Part shown: piece by piece, positions 2,068 through 19,510 of the stretch
Position numbering within the stretch: position 1 is the first letter of the stretch
How the letters are laid out: each line of letters opens with the position of its first letter
Source of the DNA: Flaccisagitta enflata
Lineage: Eukaryota
NCBI GenBank assembly: GCA_965153355.1
Contig: OZ231126.1
Location: 33,046,001-33,110,000 of the forward strand
Direction: 5' to 3'
Length of the DNA stretch: 64,000 bases
Translations under genes and position numbers: made by a program
Notes under the pieces: generated by a model
Told to the model about the DNA's origin: nothing
Seen by the model: the letters and a program-made list of their open reading frames with translations, nothing else
Databases searched by the model: none

Positions 2068-3242
2068 TTAGCGCAGAGAGTTAATGTAAATAGCAAATTC
2101 TTCCGGCGATAAAGCAGCGAGCCGACTCATGTCAACTGCCGGATCTTGTGCAGACGCAGTTGACGTTGAAGACGTGGTGGAGTTATTCTGCATCGTCGAC
2201 GTTGGCCTTGGAGCTGAGGACGCCTCGGCGATGCACGGCCTACCCATTGGCACACCGCCGTTCTTCATGGCTTGCAGCGCCAAGGGCCTTTGATCGAGAT
2301 AGTGACCATAGTTCATCGCAAATTGATTTAAAGACTTTTCGGCGAATTTGAAAATCACGGTATGAGCGCTCCCCGCTTGAAGACACCATATGAGCGAACC
2401 GAAACGAGCGAAGTAACTCTCCACTTGGAGAACGGAAAGAGGAGATCGATCGAGAGTAGACGCTTCCAAGTAATCAATGGCGTCGAGGTCGAGAGCTTCC
2501 GATTGCTTTTTAGAGGTCGGTTCTTCAAGACGATGAGAAGCAGTGCGAGAATTAGATTTGGACCCAAGGCTTTCAATCTGTCGTTGCGTCTTTCTCACTT
2601 GGTCGTCCGTCCGTTTGTCAATTTGTCCCGGCTTATTCAACGCCTCGGCGTTAGATTTGAGACAGGATTGAGCAAATTCCACCAAAGACCGCGCATTTTC
2701 CAAAACACTTCTTTCGGGGCCGGGATAACTCGATGATGGGACGTCTTTCAGCTCGTGAGCGCCCACTTTCCAATTACCATTTCCGGTTTTGCGCAAGACG
2801 TTGCTTCGCGATGAAGAATCTCGAGACCGCGATGGCGTTGAGGAAGAGGAGGAGGAGGAGAAAGAGGAAGATCGACGACGGCTGCGCTGATGGCGATCTT
2901 TGCTGCGGGATCTCGTTTGACGCCGACGACTTTCGCGTTCTCGACTTCTTGAACGAGATCGTGATCTGCTTTCCCTCACACGTTTTGATCCATGATCGTA
3001 ATCGTAGAAACTACTTCTTGAAGTTGATCCATGTTCGTATTCGTAGAAGTTACCCTGCTTGTGAAATTTAGGGATCGTGTGACCGTGTCTGCTTCTAGGC
3101 TGCGAGAGCTCGAAGTGGGAAGGATTGAAATTCTTGGGTTTGTAGTGAGAGTAGAGACATATCTTCCCTTCCTTCAAACGTCGACAATTGCCAAATTGGA
3201 CCAAATTGGGACACGGCCAGTTGTCATGAGAGAAATGGCAGG
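2068..3242 (-). CDS. 3' half of the LTR-interrupted CCCH zinc-finger/RS/RRM-like gene (end of ZF7, ZF8, RS-rich region, RRM-like domain)
   Basis: Open frame continuous with 16440-17589 once the element and one TSD copy are removed (..RIDTGQ|SCHFSHDNWPCPNLVQFGNCRRLKEGKICLYSH..). Contains an RSRSRSRSRERESRRR tract. C-terminal LSVLQVESYFARFGSLIW...VIFKFAEK...GHYLDQRPLAL resembles an RRM by pattern only. Confidence 0.85.
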
Positions 3243-3247
3243 ACTGT

Positions 3248-4160
3248 TGTAAATACGCCCACGAGTTTCAACTGGCACTGTCTATGAGCGTCTATCTGAC
3301 TGACGACTTGTGGTGAAAGAAAGTTGGCCGAATTGGAAAATAGGAAGGCGATCGTCTCGTTTATTCCATAAAAATTTCAACAACTGAAGAGAGGGGGAAA
3401 AATGAAAGGGAAAGTGGGCGTTAATTGTGATCAGCAAACGCAAAAGATAACATGAAATCGAGATAGGACACAATAAAGGACAGAAACAGCACATGACAAC
3501 ATGTTCATCTTCTTCAGAGCCCATGCCACCTGATAATACCTGCCCCTGCCCCGGCCCATCCCATTAAATTCATCCATATCATCCCTATAGTAAGCTGACC
3601 GGGCAAGCGATAAAACCATACTAAAATCCGGCGATAAAAATGCAAAAGGGCAAAAGACAAAAATAACAGACCGGAAACAAGATAAACAACGTTAATAAAA
3701 TCAGAAACACGTCTATAAAAACTTACTTTTAGGCCCACTTTCGTTGGTTTCAACCCACAGTCTGTCGATGTCAAATTAACGTTAATTGTCCGTTCATTAG
3801 TTTATCTGCAATAAAAAGATGAGAGATTATTGAAATTAGTGAATTCCAAGGGCGCATTCAAACGATCATAAAAATCAATCAATCACTTTAAGAAGCGATG
3901 CCATAATTAAATAAAACCAATCAATCCAAAAATTGGATGACACGAAAGACGAGTTACGTATATTTGCCTACGTAGTAAAAACAAATGGCACAAAATCAAG
4001 GCGCAACCATATGGTTACCCATCTAGCGTTCAATATAAAAAATGGCAAGAAACAAAAGACACGGGCATCGAATAGTAGAGAAAGAGAAAAAAGCCAAAAG
4101 CACGCAAAAGAGACAGAAGGCACACACACCTAAGCGACGGACAGACATACATTTCTAACA
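3248..4160 (-). repeat. 3' LTR (913 bp)
   Basis: Direct repeat of 15532-16439; by eye about 3 substitutions and 5 nt of small indels. Minus-strand AATAAA at 3360-3365. Confidence 0.97.
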
Positions 4161-4175
4161 TTCTGCCCCATTTTT
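4161..4175 (-). other. Polypurine tract (PPT) candidate
   Basis: Minus strand reads AAAAATGGGGCAGAA immediately before the TGTTAG start of the 3' LTR. Confidence 0.7.
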
Positions 4176-4979
4176 GGAATTTCACGAATTTCAAAAATCC
4201 GACATCTAGTTTCCAGTCGGGGAAACCCTACTAAAAAACCGATACTACCTTCCTTAAAAAAAAATTTACATAGACACAACCCCCGCCCCTCCCCCCCCGT
4301 CCACCGCCTCTTACATCCCCACCCTAACTATCAACAGATCGACGACTGCACGAATGATGATTCCCGTCCGGAAAGGATCCACCACCAGCAAATTTGCAAC
4401 GATCAATGACGACGCGGATGGAGACGAGGCGGCGACGAGGAGGTTGAGGCGCCCGTTCTGAAAAAAGTTAAAGGGAAGGGGGGGGGGAAAGGGGAACGGG
4501 CCTAGGAGCACTCCAAGCCTGGGATTTGACTTGAGAGTGGAAAAAGATAAGTGGGGGCATACTACTAAAAACATGTCATACGAAAGTATTCGTAATAATG
4601 ACTAAAAAGACCATGTCTAAAACAAACACAACAAAATGTACATGTTCCAAAGAACCAAACAAAACAAGACAAAATTAAATAAATTACTAACTATATAATA
4701 AAAACGAATCTGTTGAATAAAAGAAAAATTAGTAAGCATCATGGAACGACCACATCACCTGCGCCTTCTCCATTACAGAGACGAGCGGGTCATTCCGGCT
4801 CCAACACCTCGTCAACTCGTGGGCGAAAGGCGATGAGTGATGTCGTCGACGGCGACCGCATCGAAAGGCGCAGGTGGTGCAGCCGTCTGAGAGTGTATCC
4901 TCCCCGAAGGGAAGAAAAGGAAAGAGAAAAAATGGGGGCAGATTGATTAGTAAAGTTCTTATCGTACACAGATTCAAAT

Positions 4980-7329
4980 TTACAACAAAAACTCAACTTC
5001 AACCCTTCCCAAACCATGAAACTTACGCGGGCGTTTTTCGCCAGGCCCCGGGGCGGACGTCATTCCCACGCCCCGGGTAGCGCCCCCGACTTGGCCGGCC
5101 TGTCCATCGATGGGATGAGGATGTGAAGGTGGAATACGATCCTCAGCGAATGGCGGCGCTCTCCACGCCATGTTGCAAATTAAGTTGAACAGCAACTGGG
5201 CGTGGCACCAATCAGCGTTTAGCTGGCGGTCTGATTTTTCCAAGACCTGGTTCGATTTTTCTTATTCCCAGGCTTGAGAGCGTCTTTTTGCGACGGGATC
5301 TGCTGACCGACTTTTTCTGCTGGAGAAGACGCAGGAGGTGGAGATGCTGCATCGCAATTCGGCGCCAGTCGAAATTTTGGACGTACAGCGGACGCAGTTT
5401 TAAAATCGACGGCCATAGCCGCCTTTGCGCGTTCCACCGCTTCCTCTTTCTTCTTAGCCTTCATCGCACAGGCCTGCTTCTCCTTTTCAAGCTGCTTCTC
5501 CAGTTCCACGACTCGCTTATTGCCTTTGACCACCTCATTGTCCGCAGCCATTGCTGCTCGACGAGCATCGTCTTTCTCCTTTTGGATATTGCGACGAATT
5601 CGCTCGTCTAAGACTTGACGAGCCGCTTCAACTCGTTGACGCGGCGGAAGCGACGCGAAGAAGTCTTTTGGAAGCCTTGATGCTAAATTCTTCACCACCC
5701 CCAATGGAGCATTTGAGGTCAGTAAAGAGGCTTCTCGTAGCAATGACTCGGCGATGTGGTGTCCATGCGCAGGATCAAAGGCTGGATCCGACGGGGGAGG
5801 CGGGTTCTGCACTTGCTGCAGACCTTGGGCAGACTCGGTTTGCTGACGAGGCGCTACACCAGCTTTAACAGATGCTGAAGCACCGCCAACTAGTTCGCTT
5901 CCTACCGCTGGCTTTTGATGGCTGCGAGTGAAAGGAAGACGCTCCCGCCTGCTGACCAGAGCCTTGAGGTTTAACAGCGGACGCCGAAGCACCGCAAGTA
6001 GAACCTCCCTTGGTTGCTGCTTTGTGCTTCTTCCCAGCTCTCTTGGTCTTCTTCCCCTTTGCTGCTGCTGCCCCAGGCGCCTGATCCAGCTTCTGGGTTG
6101 CTGCCAACGTTGCCGTCGACGAACCGCTTGAAGCTTCTCCTTGGCCTTTGGGCGTTACTGCTGCAGGGGGCGCGCCTGGAGGCGCTTGAAGGGGGCCTTT
6201 GCTTTTGGAATCTGGCCCTTTTTGTTGACTCGGCACATTGCGCGTTTGTGGAGTCTTTCCCCGACGTGATCTCTTCGATTTTTGTGAGGGAGTGACGTCA
6301 CGAGGACCCTGTTGCTGCTGATTTGGGGGATGAACCAATCCAGGGCGCGATTGACGGCTTCCTGATGCTGTAGAGTGAATTGCCGCTGATGTAGCTGCGG
6401 CTGCGTCGAGCACGAATACCGCTGGTGGAATTGCGGAAGCGTCGACGGAAGTTGCACCAGGAGGCTTCGGAGCCGCATTCTTCCTCTTCGTCGCCTGGAC
6501 CATGCGACGAACCTCCTTATCATGCTCCCTCCTTCTCTTATTGCTTTGGATTTTGCGCTCCAGAGTCTCCGAGCCAAGCTCTGTTTGATTAGCCGATGAG
6601 CGCATGAGAGTTTGTTTGTTGCAGCATACCGAAAGTTTTTCAAACTCTTTGAAGAGGAGAGATACTTCGACGTCCGGGCTGATGATACGATACCACCAAC
6701 GCGCCTGCATCCGTTGGTGTTTCTCTTCCGGAGTCGCAGTGTCCACTTCCGGGTCAATGTCTTTCTCCACCACCTCCCCATTCACCAACACCTCCTCCTC
6801 CATTTCCATCCTCCTCCTCCACTCTTGCTCCATCATTGACCAATCTCTCTCTCTCTTCGCCCCCGCTGCGTTGATGTGCAGCTGCAGACGCTTGATCACG
6901 AGACGCTGGGCGCCCGAAATCAAGGCAGAATTGGCGAGGCGATGGGGGCAAATCCGACGATGATGACGCCGCCGCGGAAGTGGTGAATAAGTCCGTCGGC
7001 GGCCGATTGATCGAAATCCGCCTCGAACCTCCATCTCTGATGACCACCAATGGAGGAAGCGACGCGGGATCAACGGCGTTGGATGGCTGTTGACGATTTA
7101 CCAACGCATCATCTTGTTGACGCTTTTTATTCGCCATTTTTGCGTCGACGACGGAACGAAGGTCGCCATTGAAGGCTGCCAGCGCGACAGCCTCCTCCTC
7201 CGCCCCGAACGACGTCGTGGATGCAGATCCCTCTCGAGTTGAGCCGTCGTTGAAGAGTCGATGAAGATCCAAGGACCCGTACGACGTCGACACGTCGGCT
7301 TCAGCCTCGAGACGCTGCTGACGGGACAT
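4980..7329 (-). pseudogene. Accessory ORF3 of the BEL element; frameshifted, basic/low-complexity/coiled-coil, not env-like
   Basis: Overlapping same-strand ORFs 6754-7464, 5865-7073, 5219-5992 and 4980-5243 tile about 2.35 kb of GC-rich coding-like DNA. ATG (MSRQQRL) at 7329 is preceded by an acceptor-like TTCTTACCTTTATCAG ending at 7422. Confidence 0.65.
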
Positions 7330-7682
7330 CTTGACTCCGACGAGCGACTTCAAGATGCAAACTGACTTCGTAGATGGAATGACGTCGTCAGCGGAAGCTT
7401 TGAAATGTTCGTGTTGAAGAACTGATAAAGGTAAGAACGGATTTGGCACAAATAATATGTACATATAGACAGAGCGAATGAATCAGTGTTTTGATGTGTA
7501 AATGGAAATGGACAACATAATTGACAAGAGGAAAGATGAAAGCATGGATAATCAGAACCAAATATGAATAATAACAACTCTTTGTAAATATAACAAGTCA
7601 GAGTATCAATCACTCATATCTATAGTTACTAATGGACAGGCCCATGCGCCTTTTTCTCTCTCTCTCAAAAACTTAGCGTTTT

Positions 7683-9340
7683 TTATGAGTCCAATTCCAG
7701 CCGCACGAGCTTCGTGCGGTCTTTCGTCACGATCTTTCCATCCTGGCGCCGGATGTGAGCCCTCCGGACATGGGCTGACGAACCCTCGACGCCCATGACA
7801 CGTCCTAAACTCCAATTGTGACGAGGCAGCGTTTCGTCCATGACGATGACCATGTCATCCACCGCAAAGTCTTTCTCGGATCTCGACCATTTGCTTCGCG
7901 CGTGAAGAAGCGACAAGTATTCGACCCTCCATGATTTCCAAAATGCATCCACACGCGATTGCGCACGCCTCCATTGAATCTTCGCAGAGTCGGCGTCAGA
8001 GTTGACGCCTTGTTGCACCAGATCTAGAGGGGCATGGCCGGATGTAGATGGATTGAGGATATGATTCGGTGTAAGGGCCTCAGAGTCATTTGGATCATCG
8101 CTGAGCGCTGTCAGAGGACGGCGATTGAGAATTCCTTCAACTTCGACAACGGCAGTGTTGAAGGCGTCGACGTGGAGGATGGCGCCAGTTGAGATGGAAG
8201 CAAGATGGCGCTTAAAGAGAGCGACGATTCTCTCCCACACCCCTCCATAGTGGGGTGTTCTCGGCGTGATAAAGTCCCACCGAAGGCCGCGCCGCTGCAG
8301 TTCGGGAGTTGACGAGCGGTTCCAAGCTTCCATTTCCTTCTTGAGGATGTTATTGGCGCCTACTAGATTCGTCCCGCAATCTGAAGTGAAACGGCGAATT
8401 CCTGGGCGCCTTGCTGCAAAGCGGATGATTGCATTTACCATCGCATCAGCTGACATGTTGAAGAGCAATTCCACATGGACGGCGCGTGACACGAAACAGG
8501 TGAAGACTGCGATCCACACCTTGTGATCAGCACGCCCGTTCATCTTTACTAGGAAATGCCCCATGACATCCAATCCAGTCTCTGCAAAAACAGGTGCAGG
8601 ATTGACGCGATTTGATGGAAGATTGGCCATTTGCTGATTTGCGTTCTTTTTAAAGTTCTTCTGGCATCTGAAGCACGTGTTGACGACGCTCTTGACAGCC
8701 TGAAGACCTTTTGTAATCCACACAAACTGGCGTAATTGGCACAACGTATGCTTTGCACCCGCGTGAAAATCATTGTGATGATAATGACGAATCAATGATT
8801 TCACATTCTCGTCTTTTGGCGGCAAAATGAAGGGAAATTTAGCGTCATGTGCGATGTCGGCGTTTTCCAATCGACTGCCGACGCGAATGATACCGTCGTC
8901 GTCGACGAAAGGATTCAATTTTCGCATCTCTTTGTTTTTGATGATAAAGTCATGACGGCTTTCTGGCTTGAATACTTTTCCCAACTCCAATTGTTCAAAG
9001 ACGTCTGAATAATGATGCCGCTGCATTGACTTGACGAGCTGTTTGCGCGCCTCCTCCAAAACGTCTTGCGTCACTTCCGGTTTAGGAAGGAGATCCTTTG
9101 TTGCTCGTGTCTTCGCCCTTGGATACGCTCTCCACCTTTTGGCTGCGATAAGAACCATGCCGATGATCCGCAACTTGTGCATCCATTTTCCCCGAGAAGC
9201 TGCTGCAAGAAGTATCGCGTCAGCCACTTCTTTCTTTTCACTTTCAGCCACATATAATGCGGCGACTTGTGCAGAAATAGGGCACGTCGCGATGTTCGTC
9301 TTTGGCCATTGATCTTCGGGAAGACGCAAAAATGGGACCG
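7683..9340 (-). pseudogene. pol: BEL Pol: integrase region
   Basis: HHCC (H..FHAG...CFRC), DDE motifs GLDVMG / SDCGTNLVGA / GGVWERIV, and BEL-type C-terminus FWKSWRVEYL...WSLGRV. Joined to RNase H across a frameshift near 9335. Confidence 0.93.
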
Positions 9341-11200
9341 TGATGGAATTGACGCCATTTTTCGGCTTCATGGGCCTGGATGCCTCTGCTGCAGTGGTCC
9401 GCCGGGTTGTTTGACGAATCAACCCAGCGCCACTGTTGAGGATCAGACCCACTATGGATCTTGGAGAGACGATTGGCGAAAAACACAGGCCTCGGTTTTG
9501 CCGGATTGTAAATCATCTTCAGTGCAGATTCAGAATCAGACCAAAATCTGACGACGAGATTGTCCAAGTTGATGGTCCTTCCGACGAAGCGTTTGAGCTG
9601 CACTGCCTTTTCCGCGGATACAATCTCGACGCGTGGAACGCTGTTGTGATGAGAAGCACGTTTTGGATTGAGTGGAATGACGTGAGATTTGGAGGCGATG
9701 AATGAAATGTGAACATCTCCATCTCGGTTGACTTGACGTCGATATGCAACCGCTCCATATCCGCCTTTTGGAGCTGCATCGCAGAAGATCTCAATTGTTA
9801 TTTCCGCAATGTCACTGTTGTCGACGCCGCCATTCCACCAGCGTTCAATTCGGTATTGTTGTAGAAGAGGCCAAGATGAAGTGTAGCGGAAGAAGGATTC
9901 CTCGACGCTCTCTTCCAAGGGCGAATCCCATCCCACTTCCTGTGGACGACAGAGTTGAAGATGTCGTCTGCCGATGTATGCGCTTGGACTCCAAAATCCC
10001 AATGGATCATAAAGTTTGGCTTGCATGGAGACCAATTGACGAGGTGTCTTTGCCCTAAGAGTTTTGAATTCTTCGTCGCAGATGAAAATGAAGACGTCTT
10101 CCGCCGGAAGCCATGAGACGCCCAACACCTTCGTCGGCGCATCATCTTGCTTATCTGAAATGGGGATTGGCACATTTGGATCTCCATCCATCAATTGCCG
10201 CGCATTGCTCTTCCACTTCACAAGGTCCATCCCGCCTTCCGCCATCGCCGCCACTGAATCCACCTTTAGTTGCAGTGCTTCGCCGACCGAATCCCCACTC
10301 CTACTTCGTCGATTTAAAAGCCATAGCGAATAAGATCGTAGACGTTGTAGGGATATTTGGGCCGGATTACTTCAGCATGCTTTCTGACGGTGAAAGATGT
10401 GACGAATGAGCTGGATTGGCTGCCGAAGACGTGTGATAGAAACAGATTCAAAATTGCTTCTCGAAGGGTGCGATCTTTGAACCAAAAGAATCTGAATAAA
10501 TCAGCGTCGTCAGGATGGACGCGGATTTGGTGGAAAAACGCCTTTATGTCACACATAAAGGCGATTTTCCACTGACGAAAACGCATGAGGATGTCCATCA
10601 GGCTATTCATCAAGTTTGGGCCTCCGACGAGCAAATCATTGAGTGAGATCCCGTCGGTCGCCGCACGCGCATCATGGCATACGCGCGTTTTTCCGCGCAA
10701 TTCGACAATATGAAGCGGCAAATACCAGCGCGGCTTCAATGCCGCTGCCGCTGCCGGACGTTGTCAATCTCACCGCCACTCCTGCCTCGAAACTTCTCGA
10801 TTTCACGGAAGACTCTTTCTTTGAAGGCTGGATCACGCTTGAAGCGAAAACGCTGGTTGCCGAGTCGCTTCATCGCAGTCGGTCGTGATTTCACTCTTCT
10901 CAGAATCTCCATGATTTTTTCATGATGAAATTTCCATGTGACGGGAGCAAAGTACTTTTTCACAATTGGGCAAAAATATATCTTTTCCTCTAACGTTTTG
11001 CACGCTCTGACATTTTCGAGGGAATCACCCATCTCCTCTTGCGAGACGATTGATGATGCAAAGTCATGGTAGAAGATGCGCGATGTTGCTGTTGAGGACG
11101 CGATTGTCGAGGATGCGATCGATATTATCGTTGAGGACGCGGTCATCCGTCGCGATAGCGTTGATCGACGCAATATCTCGTCCTCTTTTGCCCGTTTTTC
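9330..11200 (-). pseudogene. pol: BEL Pol: reverse transcriptase and RNase H, disrupted
   Basis: WYLPLH, RVCHDA, SLNDLLVGGPNL, DIKAFFHQI, KVLGVSW, LYDPLG, IFCDA, FWSDS, NPADHCSRG. The Y(I/V)DD position reads TAA-ATC-GAC-GAA (stop at 10314-10316) followed by a frameshift. Confidence 0.92.
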
Positions 11201-11700
11201 CACATACAGTCCAACCGAATAGACATCTAAAGCAAGTCAAAGATCCTGAAGGCCCTCGACGGATTTCTTGAGCGACGGCGGCATCCGCATGCGCCGCTCC
11301 GATGATCATCATCACACCGCCTTCAGCTTCTGGAAATTTTACGCCTTCGATGTGAGGTTGGTCAGATAGGTCGCGGAGAAAAGGAGGAATATCGCGTTCA
11401 CTCGTTAACAAATCACCCACCAATGCGTCGCTGATGTCGACGACATATTCCTCGTCGACCGATTGCATGGTGAATGAAGCGATGAAACGATCCTCAACAA
11501 CATGACTTCCCACAGTAATCACCGTCATTTGCACTGTTTTTGTTGGAATCAGAAGACTGCGAATGACATTGGTACTGATCACGTCGCGATCAGCGCCTGA
11601 GTCGATCATAGCGTAAATCGTCCTCTGCGCGCACCCGAAGAATTGTTTATAATAGTCACTGGAACGATCGGACGGACAACGCCACCAATGAAGAGACGGA
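11064..11700 (-). pseudogene. pol: BEL aspartic protease region
   Basis: YAMIDSGADRDVIS active-site motif near 11610 (frameshift just upstream), MIIGA, and CLFGWTVCG. Confidence 0.85.
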
Positions 11701-11736
11701 CCGCGACGTTGCGCCGCCGCCAGTCATGCCGTGGCG

Positions 11737-14700
11737 TTAGGAGAGATGATTTCCGTTGATCGCTGCCTCCGTCGTCGACGGCTGTTGGTGCTGCTGCAGC
11801 CGCATCCTCTGACTTTTTGAAGGGAGCCAGCGGTACTTTATTTCCCTGCTTATTTTCTCCTTTCTTCTCTTCCTTTTCTTCTTTCTTGTAGGTGCGCCCG
11901 TGGAGAATCGTTGCGTGCCGCTTCTTGCAGGTTGGCAAGTCGGCCTGTTCACGCATCCTTTGGCGTTGTGTCCTGGCAAGAGACAGTGGAAGCAAAGACG
12001 ACGAGACATGATCTTTTGAACTCTCGCGTCCACTTCCAACTCTAACAGCTGATGACAGTTTTCTGTTTGATGCATTCCACTGCAGACATTGCAGCGGTCC
12101 GTCGACTGCGTCTTTTGCTTGCCATTGGTCAAAGCATCTTCATATGATGATGGCGCTTCTTTCTCTGTAGTTGCGACTGCTGCCACTGATGCTGTTTTGC
12201 AGCTGACGCCTTTGTTGCGCTGAATCACTGCCCATGTCTCGATCAAGTTGACCAAATTGTCGAATGAAAACATTTGTCCATTTAGGGCTGCTTCATGTTG
12301 CTTTTCCCAGAATTTATCTGCAAGATGAGGGACCCTCTTGTTGAGGATCTCCTGCAGCAGCTCGTCACGATAGCATTGTTGCACTTCTCCACAGGTCCTC
12401 GCAATCTTCTTTGCCTTTTGCAACCTTGCAGACAAATTGAAATGCCTTGCATGGTCGGCCGACTGGATCTTCGCCTCCGCGACGATTTCGTTGAACAGCG
12501 CCGCAATGTTGCAGCGCCTTGCCATGAAGACGACGTCCATTTTTGCGAAGGCGTCGTCAATCTCTCCTCTTGCTGTCGCTTCAGTTGCATCAATCGTCGC
12601 AGTTTCAATGATCTCTTTTGCCGGACCAGCAAACCACTTAGGCAATTCCAATAAGATGTCCATTTGCGTCAAGCCTTCATGCTTCTCAGCATCTTTAAAC
12701 TTCCTCTTCCACATCATAAAGTCAGTGGACGAAAGCTCCTGCAGAGGCTTCTCAGGTCTTGCTCTCTCCAACGCTTTGAGGCCGACCTCCCTTGCTCGCA
12801 TGAGATCATTGTACGTCGCTCTTTCCAAAAACCTGTCCAGAGCCGGATTGTTGGGCATCTGAACGTGAACTTCCGGTTGACGGACTACTTGGTGATGCTC
12901 CACTTGATGATACGCTGGGGGTTGTTGGACGAAAGCGTATTGACCCCCGACTTTCACCGGAGATCTCTTTTTGGTTTCACGCTCCACCCCACTTCCTCTT
13001 GCTGATTCACTTGTTGTTGACGATCATCTTGATGGAATCGGGGAGCATCAAAATCTTGGCGGACGTACTGTCGTTGTTGTTGTTCTTCTTTTCGCTGTTT
13101 TTCTGCTCTCGCTGCGGCAAGGTCAAAGTCTCTCTGCTGAATCTGCATCTTCAAACTGTCTACTTCTTGCTGCAAACGCTGATTCTGCTGGATAACTTCC
13201 GCTTGAGGCGTTGCTAGAGGCGCTTGCGCTATTTTCGGCGCCTTCGGCTGCAATCCATTCGTTGTCTTCTTAGGAGCGACTTTTCTTCTTTCTTTATCTT
13301 GCAGCTGTTGTGCCAACTTCGCGTCAGCGGCCTCCTGCTTCTGCCTCCTGCGCATTGCCTCCGTTGCATCACCCCCGCTTCCGGCTGTGTTGAAGACCTT
13401 TTCCTCTTGATGGGGAATACCAGTCTCCCTTCTAGCAGAGCCAATCTGCTTCTCGAAGATCACTTCCGGTGCGGTGGGGAGAATCGTTGCCGCTGGGGTT
13501 TGATGATGCTGATCCTGATGCTGTTGCTGTTGTTGAAGCCGTTGCTGCTGCCACTGTTGATGTTGAAGCTGCTGTTGCTGGTCAGGACGCTGTTGCTGCT
13601 CATTCTGCTGCTGCAGTTGACGCTGACGTTGTCCTTGCTGCTGCTGCTGCTCCATCTGTTGCTGCTGCTGCATCGGCTGCTTGACGGACGTTTCCACTGA
13701 CTGCACATGACGTCGCTGTATGTTCGGATTGAACGATCCCGGATTGACGTTTCTGAAGATAGATCGACGGTCTTTTGGCGGATGCTGCGGCTGCTGCTGT
13801 TCCAGCTCAGACAGTTGCCTAAGCTTCACATCTCGCTGCTCTAAAGCCCCACCAATGCCGCCGTCGTTCAGGCTATTCCAGTGCTTCCGTTGCATTTCTG
13901 CCGCATTGTTGAATATTCCCGCTCTTCTATCTTCATCTCGTTGCTGCTGCTGGCGAAAGTTACACATTTTGTCGTATGAGTCCTTGTCTTCTTGTGATGA
14001 GCTTCGTTGTTGGAATCCCAATGGCACCGCGATCGGCGCCTTTGGAGCTGTTGCTGCATCACCACCTTCACCTTCAGCCATCATGCGCAGCCGTTGATCT
14101 GCAAGGCGTTGCTGTCTCTCTTCTTCTGTCTCCTCACTGATGTTCATGCTTTCGACAAAATGGTTGTTTGAAGCTGGAGGATCCACCACCACCGCTGGGA
14201 TTACGGCGGGAGGTTGCTGTTGCTGCTGCAGTTGCTGTTGCATGTTTTCCCCTGCATCGTTTTGTGATTGTTGTTGTTGTTGTTGCTGCTGCTGCTGCTG
14301 ATCGTGTTGTTGCTGTTGCTGCGCCACAGGTTGTGGCGCCGGCTGCAGGTTCTGTTGTTGTTGCTGATCTTGTTGACAAAATTGTTGTAGTTGCTGCAAC
14401 TGCTGCTGCTGCAACAGCTCTTGCTGCTGCCGTTGAGCCGTCGTTTGCTGCTGCTCCTGTGGTCGGTGGAGTTGACGTTGCTGTTGGAGTTGCTGCTGCA
14501 TCTGCAATTGATGCTGCTGCTGTTGCTCCTGTTGCTGTCGCTGCTCCTCCTCCCGTTGTTGCTGCTGCATATCGTTAATCAGCCGACGGCCTTGTCGCAT
14601 TTCCTCCTCCAACTGCCTACCCCATCTGTCTCTCTCAGCACTCCTGTTGACGAAGCGTCGCCTCGCCCTCTCCTGCGGCGTCAATCCGTTGATGATCCCG

Positions 14701-15497
14701 CGGCCTCTTGCGAGAGCGTCGGCGTCGTCGAGATCCGCAAGCATGTCGTCAGCTTGCTGCATTGGAGACGCACGCGCAGGTTCAATTTCCGAGACCAAGT
14801 CTGATACCCATTGATTGACGGCATCTCCTCTTTGGATCGGCGGCAGATTTAGAAATTGGCCGCCAGTCGGAGATTGCGCACCATGTCGCCGGGCCGGAAG
14901 TGGTAGATACTCGGATCCGTCGGGGTTTGGCGAAGACGTTCGCATCCTTGGAGTCGGAGCGCCGTAACATTGTCACGGGGCGGCGGGAGTGTCAGTTGGG
15001 AGACTGTTCCATGAGAATTCGTTGACGGGTCTTTTGCGATTCCCAATGTCGTTGTGCACTGCGTTCACGATGTCGGCGTTGGAAGGAAAACCCTCTGGAT
15101 AGTTTTCACGATCAAAGAAACGCATGGAGTCCCATTCGCTGGATTCGACGCAGCAAAGAAGACGCCGCGAATCGAAGAGGGTCGCCGGCATCGAGTCGAG
15201 CGCCATTTCTCTTGCATACGATATGAAGTCGTAGACCATGTCCCGAAGGCCGTGTCGAGCGCCATCTGATTCACAGGCGGCGCCGTCGGTCACTGCCCCT
15301 TCGGCGCAAGTAGAGACGGCGTCGAAGAGGCGCCGGCATCCTTCCATTTCCGCAGTGATGTCGTTCTTCATTGCGCGCAAACGGTTCGACCTCGGACACT
15401 GATTCAAACCGAAATGAGATACACGAGATGACGTTGGGCGGTCGAGACGGTGTCGTCGTTGCGCGGCTGCCATTGTCCAATTTTTCTGGAGGTCCAT
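11737..15497 (-). pseudogene. gag: BEL Gag with long polyQ N-terminal region and three Cys/His knuckles, frameshifted
   Basis: ORFs 14973-15497, 12954-14945 (Q-rich) and 11737-12987. Knuckles CNVCSGMHQTENC, CFHCLLPGHNAKGC and a frameshifted C..CKKRHATILH. Confidence 0.88.
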
Positions 15498-15531
15498 GAA
15501 AAGAATCGAGTCGTTTTTTAAATTGTTGAAA

Positions 15532-16439
15532 TGTAATTACGCCCACGAGTTTCAACTGGCACTGTCTATGAGCGTCTATCTGACTGACGACTTGTGGTGA
15601 AAGAAAGTTGGCCGATTGGAAAATAGGAAGGCGATCGTCTCGTTTATTCCATAAAAATTTCAACAACTGAAGAGAGGGGGAAAAATGAAAGGGAAAGTGG
15701 GCGTTAATTGTGATCAGCAAACGCAAAAGATAACATGAAATCGAGATAGGACACAATAAAGGACAGAAACAGCACATGACAACATGTTCATCTTCTTCAG
15801 AGCCCATGCCACCTGATAATACCTGCCCCTGCCCCGGCCCATCCCATTAAATTCATCCATATCATCCCTATAGTAAGCTGACCGGGCAAGCGATAAAACC
15901 ATACTAAAATCCGGCGATAAAAATGCAAAAGGGCAAAAGACAAAAATAACAGACCGGAAACAAGAAACAACGTTAATAAAATCAGAAACACGTCTATAAA
16001 AACTTACTTTTAGGCCCACTTTCGTTGGTTTCAACCCACAGTCTGTCGATGTCAAATTAACGTTAATTGTCCGTTCATTAGTTTATCTGCAATAAAAAGA
16101 TGAGAGATTATTGAAATTAGTGAATTCCAAGGGCGCATTCAAACGATCATAAAAATCAATCAATCACTTTAAGAAGCGATGCCATAATTAAATAAAACCA
16201 ATCAATCCAAAATTGGATGATACGAAAGACGAGTTACGTATATTTGCCTACGTAGCAAAAACAAATGGCACAAATCAAGGCGCAACCATATGGTTACCCA
16301 TCTAGCGTTCAATATAAAAAATGGCAAGAAACAAAAGACACGGGCATCGAATAGTAGAGAAAGAGAAAAAAGCCAAAAGCACGCAAAAGAGACAGAAGGC
16401 ACACACACCTAAGCGACGGACAGACATACATTTCTAACA
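15532..16439 (-). repeat. 5' LTR (908 bp)
   Basis: TGTAATTAC...TTTCTAACA, a direct repeat of 3248-4160. Confidence 0.97.
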
Positions 16440-17589
16440 ACTGTCCTGTGTCGATCCTCGGGCATCTGCCTTTGTTCTCTAAATGCTTGCAAGGAGCCGC
16501 TCTGGCCGTAGGATCCCTGGGTGGGGCTCGGGGCTGGGGCGTGGGTGGAGGATGTATCGGCTTGTTGTGATCGATTACTTCTCTCTCTGCGGGATTAGGA
16601 TGTCGAGGGGCGTTTCCCTCGTGAGGATAATGACACCTTTTGCCCAATTCCAGACGATAACATTTGCCATCTTTGGCCAAATTGGGACAAGCGTAATCTT
16701 CGTGGGAAAAGAAGCAATCGATACCATTGTCGATTTTGATACATCTTCCTTTTGCTTCCAGATATTTGCAAGGCAGTCTAACTTTTGGCTTATCGCCTTG
16801 ACGCAATTCCTCTGGTCCATGAGCAAATGAGCATTTGTAAGAAAACCTTTCTTCGCCGCGTGGGCACGTCAATCCATTCTCCCAATGGTAACACATGGTG
16901 GTCTTGTAATTGTTCCTGCCATACTCGGACAAATCATCGACGCCGTGAGCATACGTGCAATCGTTGTCGCCTTTGCAATATCCAGTTTCCATAAACGCGA
17001 CACAAAGACGAATCTTGTGAGTAGAAAATCTGCCATCTTGTTGCTTTTGGCTTTTTGGAGTAAATTGTTGATGGGGCTGGCGCTTGTGAGTAGTGAACCC
17101 CCACTTGTCGGTACACAAAGGCTGGGATTGGGACTTCTTACCAGAGTAGCTGTAGTAACCATTTTTGATATTCAAAATTCTCTCGCCTTTTCGAGGCCGA
17201 TCGCTTTTGGGAACTTCCATTTTCGGTCGCAATTCTTTTTCTCCGTGAGCTTTGAGACACGCTTGTCGGTTTGGGCACGAGATGCCTTCCTTCCAGTAAC
17301 CGCAAAGCGAGGTTTTGTAGCGCATCCAACTGGCCAGCGTGAGATCTTTTGGTCCGTGAGCAAATTCACAAACCGAGGCGTCCAAGGGGCATTTCCCTTC
17401 CGCCATAAAAATGTTGCACAACGCAATTTTTCCGCTGTCGAGCAAATTGGCGAAATCTTCCGCCGTTTCGAGATCCTCGGCGCGGGCGGGTTTAGGATCT
17501 GGTTTCTCGTCGTCGTCGGCGGAAGGAGAAGCGTCGACTTTAGACGGCTCTTTACCCTCTTCATCACTCGAAATCTCGTCGTAATCCAT
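16440..17589 (-). CDS. 5' half of the LTR-interrupted multi-CCCH zinc-finger gene (TIS11/ZFP36-like tandem fingers)
   Basis: ATG (MDYDEISSD) at 17589. Fingers KIALC..C..CEFAHG, YKTSLC..CLKAHG, HKIRLC..CTYAHG, YKTTMC..CSFAHG, PCKYLEAKGRC..CFFSH, CPNLAKDGKC..CHYPH, and the start of a 7th cut by the TSD. Confidence 0.9.
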
Positions 17590-18284
17590 GATACGAATGA
17601 AGAAAAATTTACCGCACAAAAACACGCGTTGATTGGAGGAAAGTTTATGCAAATCAGAAGATAAAAGTTTTTGTTTTTTAGTTTTTGTTTTTTCTACGTT
17701 TTAAAAGGAGAGAAAGTTTTTTTTCTTTTTTCATTAAGAAGCAAATTTTACAATATTGATTTTTTTCCATGAGGAGAGGGAAAAGTTCTATTTTGTTCAA
17801 CAAGTTTATTTATCTTTTGTCGAGCATTTTGATTCGTGTCACAAAATTACTATTAGTGAGTCTATTGAAAGCTTCTTTTTCGAAATTGATAATCGAGTTT
17901 ACAGTTTTGGGCTTGATTCCAGAGCAACTTGGCCGAATTGCCGAAGCTGAAAGCAGAGCGCTAAAAATGTTTATTGTTTAATGTTTAATTAGGATTTTGT
18001 TTTTAACAGTCACAGATTAAAACGTTTTTTATTTCACTGAATCTTAAAATAAAGATTGTGTCAAAAGAGAAAATATTTGCGATATGGCGGCAAATTGTTT
18101 CAATTCGTTGATAACAAATAAGAAATGCGGGGTTACAACATCGTCATGGACGTGAGGGCAGGGGCATACGACCCCCTTTTACACCCCCTGCCACGCATAC
18201 TCGTCGCACACAAATCTGCCTAACACAAAACCAACAGACAAAAAAAAAAAGACTAACTAAAGAGGCAGACAAACGAAACAGACA

Positions 18285-19510
18285 AACAAAGCAAACAAAC
18301 AAAACACACAAACAAAAGACAGACACACAAAGCAGACAGACACACAAAGCAGACAGACACACAAAACAGACAGACACACAAAACAGACAGACACACAAAA
18401 CAGACAGACACACAAAACAGACAGACACACAAAACAGACAGACACACAAAACAGACAGACACACAACACAGACAGACACACAACACAGACAGACACACAA
18501 AACAGATGGACACACAAAACAGATGGACACACAAAACAGATGGACACACAAAACAGATGGACACACAAAACAGATGGACACACAAAACAGATGGACACAC
18601 AAAACAGATGGACACACAAAACAGATGGACACACAAAACAGACGGCCACACAAAACAGACGGACACACAAAACAGATGAACACACAAAACAGACGGACAC
18701 ACAAAACAGACGGACACACAAAACAGACGGACACACAAAACAGACGGACACACAAAACAGACGGACACACAAAACAGACGGACACACAAATCTGAAGGAC
18801 ACACAAAACTGACGGACACACAAAACAGATGGACACACAAAACAGACAGAAAGGCAAAACAGACAGACACGCAAAACAGACAGACACACAAAACAGACAG
18901 ACAGGCAAAACAGACAGACACGCAAAACAGACAGACACGCAAAACTGACAGACACGCAAAACTGACAGACACGCAAAACTGACAGACACGCAAAACTGAC
19001 AGACACACAAAACAGACGGCCAGACACACAAAACAGACGGCCAGACACACAAGACAGACAGCCAGACACACAAGACAGACAGACACAAGACAGACACACG
19101 ACAGACAGACACACAAGGCAGACAGACACACAAAACAGATAGACACACAAAACAGATGGACACACAAAACAGACACACAAAACAGACGGACACACAAAAC
19201 ACGGACACACATAACAGACGGACACACAAAACAGACGGACACACAAAACAGACGGACACACAAAACAGACGGACACACAAAACAGACAGACACACAAAAC
19301 AGACAGACACACAAAACAGACAGACACACAAAAGAGACGGACACACAAAACTGACGGACACACAAAACTGACGGACACACAAAACTGACGGACACACAAA
19401 ACAGACGGACACACAAAACAGACGGACACACAAAACAGACGGACACAAAACAGAAGGACACGCAAAACAGACGGACGCACAAAACAGACGGACGCACAAA
19501 ATAGACGGAC
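18285..19510. repeat. 17-bp minisatellite (ACACACAAAACAGAC[A/G]G variants)
   Basis: About 70 tandem units with blocks of variants (CAGACAG, CAGATGG, CAGACGG, CTGACAG); followed by (CA)n at about 19740-19820. Confidence 0.95.

Follow-up and report, generated by a model that had tools for sequence, protein, structure and literature searches.

A probable non-envelope third gene behind pol in a BEL/Pao retrotransposon of Flaccisagitta enflata

We analyzed a 64,000-nucleotide stretch of Flaccisagitta enflata DNA (contig OZ231126.1 of assembly GCA_965153355.1; hereafter the window, numbered from its first letter), in which a BEL/Pao long terminal repeat (LTR) retrotransposon of 13,192 bp occupies positions 3248 to 16439 on the minus strand. 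Behind its integrase the element carries a large third open reading frame (ORF3; 5219-7329, minus strand), which is the subject of this report. The element is assigned to BEL/Pao by its LTRs, a target-site duplication, a Pao peptidase, and an integrase with a DUF5641 tail. Self-comparison of the window identified the LTRs as direct repeats (3′ LTR, 3248-4160; 5′ LTR, 15532-16439; both minus strand) that end in TGT...ACA (TG..CA) and are 99.1% identical over 913 aligned columns. Of the 7 differences between them, 3 are substitutions and 4 are small insertion-deletion (indel) events of 1 or 2 bases; because only 3 substitutions separate them in 913 bp, the insertion is recent. A 5-bp target duplication, ACTGT, flanks both ends of the element, at 3243-3247 beside the 3′ LTR and at 16440-16444.

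All long frames between the LTRs lie on the minus strand, in the order gag to pol. A gag-like frame with two CCHC zinc knuckles (11737-13023, with knuckle codons starting at 12093 and 11994) stands upstream of pol, in which Pfam places Peptidase_A17, the Pao retrotransposon peptidase (9244-10371, E = 3e-29), followed by Integrase_H2C2 (3e-9), rve (6e-5), and DUF5641 (1e-19) in the integrase frame (7683-9512). No RVT family was reported by Pfam for the frames examined from 10314 to 13023, where this copy is split over several frames, which weakens detection. The distance from the integrase stop at 7683 to the 3′ LTR is 3,522 bp, in agreement with the approximately 3.5 kb given in a prediction previously made from the letters of the window (the original prediction). 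This interval consists of an AT-rich spacer from the integrase stop to the ORF3 ATG (7330-7682, minus strand), ORF3 itself, and an untranslated tail (4161-5218, minus strand, delimited by the stop position of relatives), in which a purine-rich tract adjoins the LTR. The proportion of G and C (GC) is 0.37 in the spacer, 0.55 in ORF3, and 0.48 in the tail (measured over 4161-5221).

In the window, the region from 7482 down to 4980 contains overlapping minus-strand open frames of 242, 410, 311, and 93 codons. Used as the query of a word-indexed search, the 410-codon frame retrieved four single-frame proteins of 703 to 710 amino acids (P0001 to P0004; E = 1e-144 to 1e-175), 82 to 95% identical to the middle piece of the window, plus fragments; intact relatives at these E values exclude chance open frames. 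When the 710-amino-acid P0001 was aligned to the window (tblastn), residues 1 to 173 matched 7329-6811 (96% identity), residues 157 to 482 matched 6863-5907 (91%), and residues 474 to 710 matched 5932-5222 (93%). ORF3 is thus read here in three frames (7329-6811, about 6809-5907, and 5932-5222), and the frame changes relative to P0001 within two zones, 6800-6811 and 5907-5932, which are not exact bases. The ATG lies at 7329 and the stop at 5219-5221, a stop shared by each of the 14 full-length proteins listed in the P0001 cluster, which end in the same last residues. The fourth frame (4980-5261), which carries the DWCHAQLLFNLICNMAW block, sits behind this stop; because intact relatives stop at 5219-5221, this block is part of the untranslated tail and lies outside the protein. 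The original prediction had fused four frames into a protein of 700 to 780 amino acids ending in the DWCHAQLLFNLICNMAW block. That these frames form one gene of about this size was borne out, with relatives of 703 to 710 amino acids, or of 755 when they start at an in-frame upstream ATG; the gene takes up three of the frames rather than four. The quoted peptides are all present, and the "ordered block" and the coiled coil proved to be the most conserved parts of ORF3, whereas the terminal block is noncoding.

Unless they are errors of the assembly, the two frameshifts mean that this copy would not yield a full-length protein. Its gag-pol region (7683-15536) is likewise divided among at least seven overlapping frames. 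Small indels distinguish other copies from the window at several places, for example 2 bases at 11627, a difference present in 29 DNA contigs and in every RNA-library contig that covers the site. The frame breaks of this copy reflect either indel decay, despite the young LTRs, or indel errors in the assembly. There is no second copy of ORF3 elsewhere in the window.

To what extent ORF3 is preserved beyond this copy is best seen in its intact relatives, which span 682 to 710 amino acids and in which the predicted single frame is indeed found. The P0001 cluster has 87 members, and among the 15 listed, 10 are 710 amino acids long and all fall between 703 and 803. A diverged cluster around P0028 has 92 members, with 12 of the 15 listed at 692 amino acids, on contigs that reach 12,710 bp. 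When 1.84 billion representatives were searched with the last frame, nine matches at E ≤ 0.001 were obtained, eight of them family members (including C-terminal fragments 31 to 51% identical and the internally deleted P0013) and the ninth a low-complexity match to a protein of 2009 amino acids. Profile searches added P0020 and then the full-length P0028 (692 amino acids) and P0029 (682 amino acids), as well as P0030; P0011 is also among the relatives. Region by region, identity to P0001 is 33 to 49% for P0028 and 25 to 43% for P0029. It is highest in a central domain of 118 amino acids (6456-6809, minus strand; 49% in P0028 and 43% in P0029), which has 25 invariant columns across 10 sequences, while relatives are 34 to 49% identical in a C-terminal domain (P0001 residues 520 to 710; 5222-5794, minus strand). 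Gaps of 77 to 90 residues between lineages occur only in an Ala/Pro/Ser/Gln linker and are in frame.

Three lineages that are 25 to 49% identical by region therefore all retain a full-length frame. We calculate from the standard code that about 4% of base changes made at random create a stop codon; the retention of approximately 690 open codons at this divergence would require selection on ORF3, an argument from open frames and not from a ratio of nonsynonymous to synonymous substitutions. No cellular homolog was found among the 1.84 billion representatives searched. In JGI metagenome contigs, a profile search for other copies gave 595 pattern matches, none of which was confirmed, and a degenerate pattern for the conserved block gave no match; in IMG/VR, none of 528 pattern matches was confirmed. 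As far as the databases show, ORF3 is restricted to marine assemblies.

ORF3 is also physically tied to the element. In P0013, the integrase (window 8768-8298) is joined in one frame to the C-terminal domain of ORF3 (5791-5585), a pol-linked homolog of the kind the original prediction had proposed to look for. The deletion in P0013 also indicates that internally deleted derivatives of the family circulate. DNA run X1 has 39,495 contig pieces that fit the element; likeness is ≥99% in 15,482 of these, 95 to 99% in 15,394, and 90 to 95% in 8,619. Summed X1 depth is 351,728 to 544,334 in bins over ORF3, compared with 443,791 to 873,483 in bins over pol. Because the depth of ORF3 is like that of pol, the block is a regular part of the family, present in other copies, and not a one-off capture.

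A single X1 DNA contig joins 4974 to about 7481 and would represent a variant without the ORF3 block, its leader, and 245 bp of the tail; the 12 letters "between" the two sides equal window 7481-7492. The joint is weak (a lone contig whose shorter side has 26 letters, at a depth of 700 versus roughly 400,000 to 500,000) and hints that an ORF3-less variant of the family exists but is rare.

Two alternative origins of the block can be weighed on these data. The first is that an unrelated mobile element is nested between pol and the LTR, or that the assembly is chimeric there, as the ORF3-less joint and the jump in GC between the spacer (0.37) and ORF3 (0.55) might suggest. However, no internal repeats or second target duplication were found, and the matches in a self-BLAST of the element were limited to the two LTRs and a single inverted match of 43 bp; moreover, ORF3 lies on the same strand and at the same depth as pol, its start and stop are identical across hundreds of relatives, and P0013 fuses it to integrase. 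We consider this origin highly improbable. The second is that ORF3 is a passenger, captured host or foreign coding DNA that came to lie behind pol, plays no part in the life cycle, and is open only because the copies are young. Such a passenger would fit the lack of a recognizable domain, the roughly 72% of the protein that is predicted to be disordered or of low complexity, the flat identity along the protein among close copies, and the one contig that lacks the block. It does not readily account for frames of 682 to 710 amino acids kept in lineages that are only 25 to 49% identical, for indels that are in frame and confined to the linker, for a DNA depth like that of pol, or for the lack of a cellular homolog, and we regard it as quite unlikely. 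Together, these results make it very probable that ORF3 is a real third gene of this BEL/Pao lineage and that it is not an envelope (env) gene.

That ORF3 does not look like env had been claimed in the original prediction, and those hallmarks of an envelope protein that could be assessed were absent. The N terminus is polar (MSRQQRLEAE...), and we found no signal peptide or membrane segment in ORF3 by a crude method, the maximum 19-residue Kyte-Doolittle mean being 1.32, with no dedicated predictor applied. There are 6 Cys in 710 residues, of which only an adjacent CC pair in the central domain is invariant, and the isoelectric point (pI) is 9.8 for the protein and 11.3 for the linker. At E ≤ 1, Pfam returned no family for P0001, P0011, P0012, P0028, P0029, or the central domain, and only subthreshold noise (DUF4472, HTH_68, MctB, and Lin-8) for the window pieces, P0014, P0015, and P0020. 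A profile of the ORF3 family matched no PDB sequence at E ≤ 1. Structure searches behaved similarly: Foldseek against PDB found nothing at E ≤ 0.001 (best E of 2.8, J-domain look-alikes with probability ≤0.06), the best ESM Atlas match to the C-terminal domain reached 0.86 (lead level, 0.9) and the central domain had no usable match, and wide VIA-align searches gave only tied rows of generic single helices or coiled coils (best Z scores, 5.2 and 6.9). With 6 Cys, no Pfam or PDB match, and generic helices only, we saw no likeness to a Cys-rich ectodomain or fusogen, in models that are mostly of low confidence.

Three candidate relationships were considered and rejected. A signal peptide in the extension from the upstream ATG (MYIL...) was discarded, as this stretch changes frame between close copies. 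Kinship of ORF3 with the element's own gag received an hhalign probability of 0.2%, and kinship with the poly-Q ORF at the 5′ end of the element gave a best E of 13.

A diverged or degenerate envelope or fusion gene, as in roo or in mosquito and nematode BEL/Pao elements, would explain why ORF3 lies behind pol on the same strand. It also contains a long helix; coiled coils occur in class I fusogens, and two viral fusion cores stood among 50 tied generic helix matches (Z = 6.4 to 6.5). The protein nonetheless has no signal peptide, no hydrophobic segment, few Cys, a pI of 9.8, and no env family in Pfam, and 510 of its 710 residues are predicted to be disordered; even the hydrophobic-looking upstream extension of some copies is not kept in frame. 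An envelope origin is accordingly very hard to credit.

What the protein may look like was approached with AlphaFold2, run on P0001 with the family alignment. The mean predicted local distance difference test (pLDDT) score is 46.8, with 510 of 710 residues below 50, and confident structure is predicted in two places: a helix at residues 253 to 285 (pLDDT, 87 to 89) and residues 530 to 650 (pLDDT, 86 to 95), made up of a pair of short helices and an 85-residue helix. This long helix comprises residues 570 to 654 (window 5644-5390), with a basic tail after it. The structure check suggested in the original prediction thus returned confident helices and, from Foldseek, no significant match. Four parts of the protein are conserved: short N-terminal motifs, the central helical domain (approximately 110 to 118 amino acids), a basic motif in the linker, and the C-terminal domain. 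The central domain contains the motifs QARWWY..., FKEF, the invariant CC pair, and SSA.Q; folded alone from 10 sequences, it is predicted to form three helices, with low confidence (pLDDT, 61.8; predicted template-modeling score [pTM], 0.28). Clusters of conserved basic residues occur after the central domain (KRRR), in the linker, where a KR-rich cluster follows a conserved RP..VHPP....RD.TP motif, and in the C-terminal tail. Together, these features describe an ORF3 product of about 700 amino acids that is basic and is predicted to be mostly intrinsically disordered, with a coiled-coil end.

When two copies of residues 520 to 710 were modeled together, the complex score was 0.51 (runs of 0.51, 0.54, and 0.51), compared with 0.00 for the best of three controls; the runs share at least 45% of contacts, and the pLDDT of the partner is at least 61. 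In calibration, this mark was reached by 21 of 30 solved homodimers and 0 of 23 solved single chains from microbes and by 17 of 29 homodimers and 0 of 30 single chains from eukaryotes, although by only 1 of 7 for those without an older solved relative. The closest contact pairs are 621-621, 614-625, 603-638, and 600-642; the pairs 621-621, 603-638, and 600-642 indicate an antiparallel arrangement. The modeling supports self-association of the C-terminal helix as a predicted antiparallel homodimer.

The spacer ahead of ORF3 bears on how such a protein might be made. As the original prediction described, it is AT rich and an acceptor-like TTCTTACCTTTATCAG (minus strand, 7437-7422) precedes the ATG. 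Immediately upstream of the ATG, 24 codons (7401-7330) are in frame and free of stops in all seven sequences that reach upstream (the window, P0008, P0026, P0030, P0034, P0035, and P0039), including P0030, which belongs to a diverged lineage and whose tblastn match to the window starts at 7401. Farther upstream than 7401, frames differ between close copies. The conserved codons could be an N-terminal extension reached by splicing or by a non-AUG start, or a conserved untranslated element; the sequences fit either. A spliced message is a reasonable idea because ORF3s of LTR retrotransposons are, according to one account (PMC5408684), typically expressed from spliced messages. The strict splice-donor motif occurs twice in the window (3.2 expected) and not at all inside the element. 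A junction had been foreseen at 7421/7422; none of the 15 joints listed lies there, all of these coming from the DNA run, and one RNA-library contig runs continuously over 5475-7647, unspliced across 7422.

The preceding results establish that the gene is intact in relatives, conserved, linked to integrase, and without env features, and they give its predicted architecture; for the route of expression, location, binding, and role we offer an inference. The ORF3 protein would be an intracellular product of a subgenomic message, or of one translated separately in some other way; it would dimerize via its C-terminal helix and would bind nucleic acid or chromatin with its basic clusters. It could then serve the element's own replication as a scaffold or chaperone of the ribonucleoprotein (RNP); alternatively, it might be an adaptor through which the pre-integration complex is imported into the nucleus or tethered. 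Taken as a whole, the statement that ORF3 is a selected third gene with an accessory role of some kind is likely to be correct. The specific mechanism, an intracellular dimeric binder of nucleic acid or chromatin that serves replication, is put forward tentatively.

Several observations weigh against this account. In a polyadenylated-RNA run of the same organism, of which about 6% was read, no reads fell on ORF3; of 12,162,974 records, 55 matched the element, all partially and all in low-complexity bins at 13591-14820. Contigs from two further RNA libraries span the entire element with an even depth of about 6 to 20, which may represent genomic RNA or DNA carry-over. No RNA splice joint is found among the 15 joints listed (527 more are unlisted). 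No domain of ORF3 offers a biochemical handle: the model of the central domain is weak, and the structural matches are generic single helices. The dimer score rests on a long, charged, Ala-rich helix of a type that can also be a single stable helix, and was obtained with a method that is unvalidated on disordered chains and made no use of the alignment. Identity within the P0001 subfamily is nearly flat along the protein (79 to 93%), with no sign of differential constraint among recent copies. Finally, the relatives all come from marine assemblies, and the three lineages may represent subfamilies of a single host or of a few related ones.

A selected gene need not act in replication directly. 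As a host-defense antagonist, ORF3 would instead counter silencing by PIWI-interacting RNA (piRNA) or heterochromatin, or some other restriction. That the family is so extremely abundant in run X1 (39,495 pieces, 15,482 of them at ≥99%) is indirect evidence for such a role, and the short conserved motifs in the disordered N terminus and linker would suit it, as motifs of this kind in disordered sequence are typical of host-factor binding. Abundance has many other explanations, however, and similarity to known suppressors is absent; we think this role unlikely. The original prediction had named anti-silencing, targeting, and condensate roles; these are guesses, none of which the data specifically favor. 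A bolder form of the replication account is that ORF3, acquired by a BEL/Pao lineage of marine animals, founds a new class of accessory protein: a disordered and basic adaptor, dimeric and without homologs in cells or viruses, that promotes spread of the family, whether by chromatin tethering of the pre-integration complex, by nuclear entry of the RNP, or by blunting of silencing. We find this doubtful. The probability that remains goes to some explanation not yet thought of.

The rest of the element and its surroundings also deserve description. Between the primer-binding region and gag lies an extra open, Gln-rich coding region of approximately 2.5 kb (12954-15536, minus strand), made up of 187- and 672-amino-acid frames that are rich in poly-Q and match no Pfam family. 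RNA-library depth spikes at 13181-14820 stem from low-complexity repeats. With these frames ahead of gag and ORF3 behind pol, the element is enlarged at both ends.

The element has inserted into a host gene for a CCCH zinc-finger protein, within an exon, and interrupts one of the fingers in phase. The flanks (2068-3247 and 16440-17700, minus strand) are host coding exon. In the upstream flank, Pfam identifies zinc fingers of the CCCH type (zf-CCCH_UNK, 1e-9; zf-CCCH, 1.5e-6); codon phase is kept across the empty site by the downstream flank, which continues into more CCCH-like spacing and an Arg/Ser-rich region. The split finger is C-x8-C-x8-C-x3-H. With LTRs that differ by 3 substitutions in 913 bp, the insertion looks recent and gene disrupting, and it is possibly polymorphic. 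Outside the element, a 17-bp tandem array of ACACAAAACAGACAGAC occupies 18223-19510 (76 copies, 89% matches), and many further micro- and minisatellites are spread across 22 to 61 kb of the window, the remainder of which showed no other large coding frames.

How ORF3 compares with known third genes matters for annotation. Third genes behind pol are usually presumed to be env, and those described in the BEL/Pao literature covered here are env-like, whereas ORF3 is very probably of another kind and matches no known family; a label of "env" should not rest on position alone. ORF3 also provides a testable example of retrotransposons evolving accessory proteins, like complex retroviruses, and an orphan protein family for study, with a conserved central domain and a predicted dimerizing tail. 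If it were an adaptor that promotes spread, it would help explain both the 13-kb size of the element and the very high abundance of its family in the host.

According to de la Chaux and Wagner (2011; PMC3118150), BEL/Pao elements usually measure 4.2 to 10 kb and few contain env; at 13.2 kb, this element is larger. The env-like third ORFs described in PMC13524379 are F-like in Drosophila roo and like gB or Chuviridae glycoproteins in mosquitoes. ORF3 resembles these genes in its placement behind integrase on the same strand and before the 3′ LTR, with an acceptor-like motif in the spacer ahead. It differs in lacking a signal peptide, an anchor, a Cys-rich ectodomain, and similarity to fusogens, and in being basic and mostly disordered. 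The third ORFs of Tas and of some Cer elements are env-like as well. We found no non-env ORF3 of a BEL/Pao element in the literature, in a search for which "BEL/Pao" was unsearchable as a phrase and that did not extend to subscription journals, Repbase, or supplements.

Closer parallels exist elsewhere among LTR retrotransposons. In bdelloid rotifers, the non-env ORF3s include GDSL esterase, DEDDy exonuclease, coiled-coil, and transmembrane types, according to Rodriguez and Arkhipova (2017; PMC5408684); the same source describes them as typically separate transcription units, expressed via spliced messages, that may aid replication. The gene described here is likewise a family-specific, non-env extra gene behind pol. 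It differs in that the rotifer elements belong to the Juno, Vesta, TelKA, and Mag clades rather than BEL/Pao, and in that the best-characterized rotifer ORF3s are recognizable enzymes, whereas no domain is recognizable here; Pfam gave no match to an SGNH/GDSL hydrolase or a DEDD exonuclease at E ≤ 1 in P0001, P0028, or P0029. In plants, ORF0 of rice Retrosat2 is an extra ORF of an LTR retrotransposon whose function is given as unknown (PMC3485330). Like ORF3, the plant extra ORFs are restricted to a lineage and have no homologs outside their element family; they belong to another superfamily and kingdom and often lie upstream or antisense, and we set them apart by description only. Extra ORFs in plant LTR retrotransposons are also said to have been treated by Steinbauerova et al. 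in 2011.

Among proteins of other retroelements, LINE-1 ORF1p comes nearest in character: it too is basic, partly disordered, and self-associates through a long coiled coil, a property that in ORF3 is predicted; this is resemblance and not membership. ORF1p is a parallel trimer with an RNA-recognition motif (RRM) and a C-terminal domain, encoded upstream of pol, unlike ORF3, which is a predicted antiparallel dimer encoded behind pol. The coiled coil of human ORF1p was among the 50 tied helix matches (Z, 6.6; root-mean-square deviation, 5.6; 95 aligned), a generic match. Pfam identified no RRM-like or other nucleic-acid-binding domain in ORF3, and no β-containing fold was predicted, in models of low confidence. 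Non-env extra ORFs of LTR retrotransposons are thus already known from the Ty3/gypsy-like clades of rotifers and from plants; ORF3 would extend this theme to BEL/Pao with an orphan protein family.

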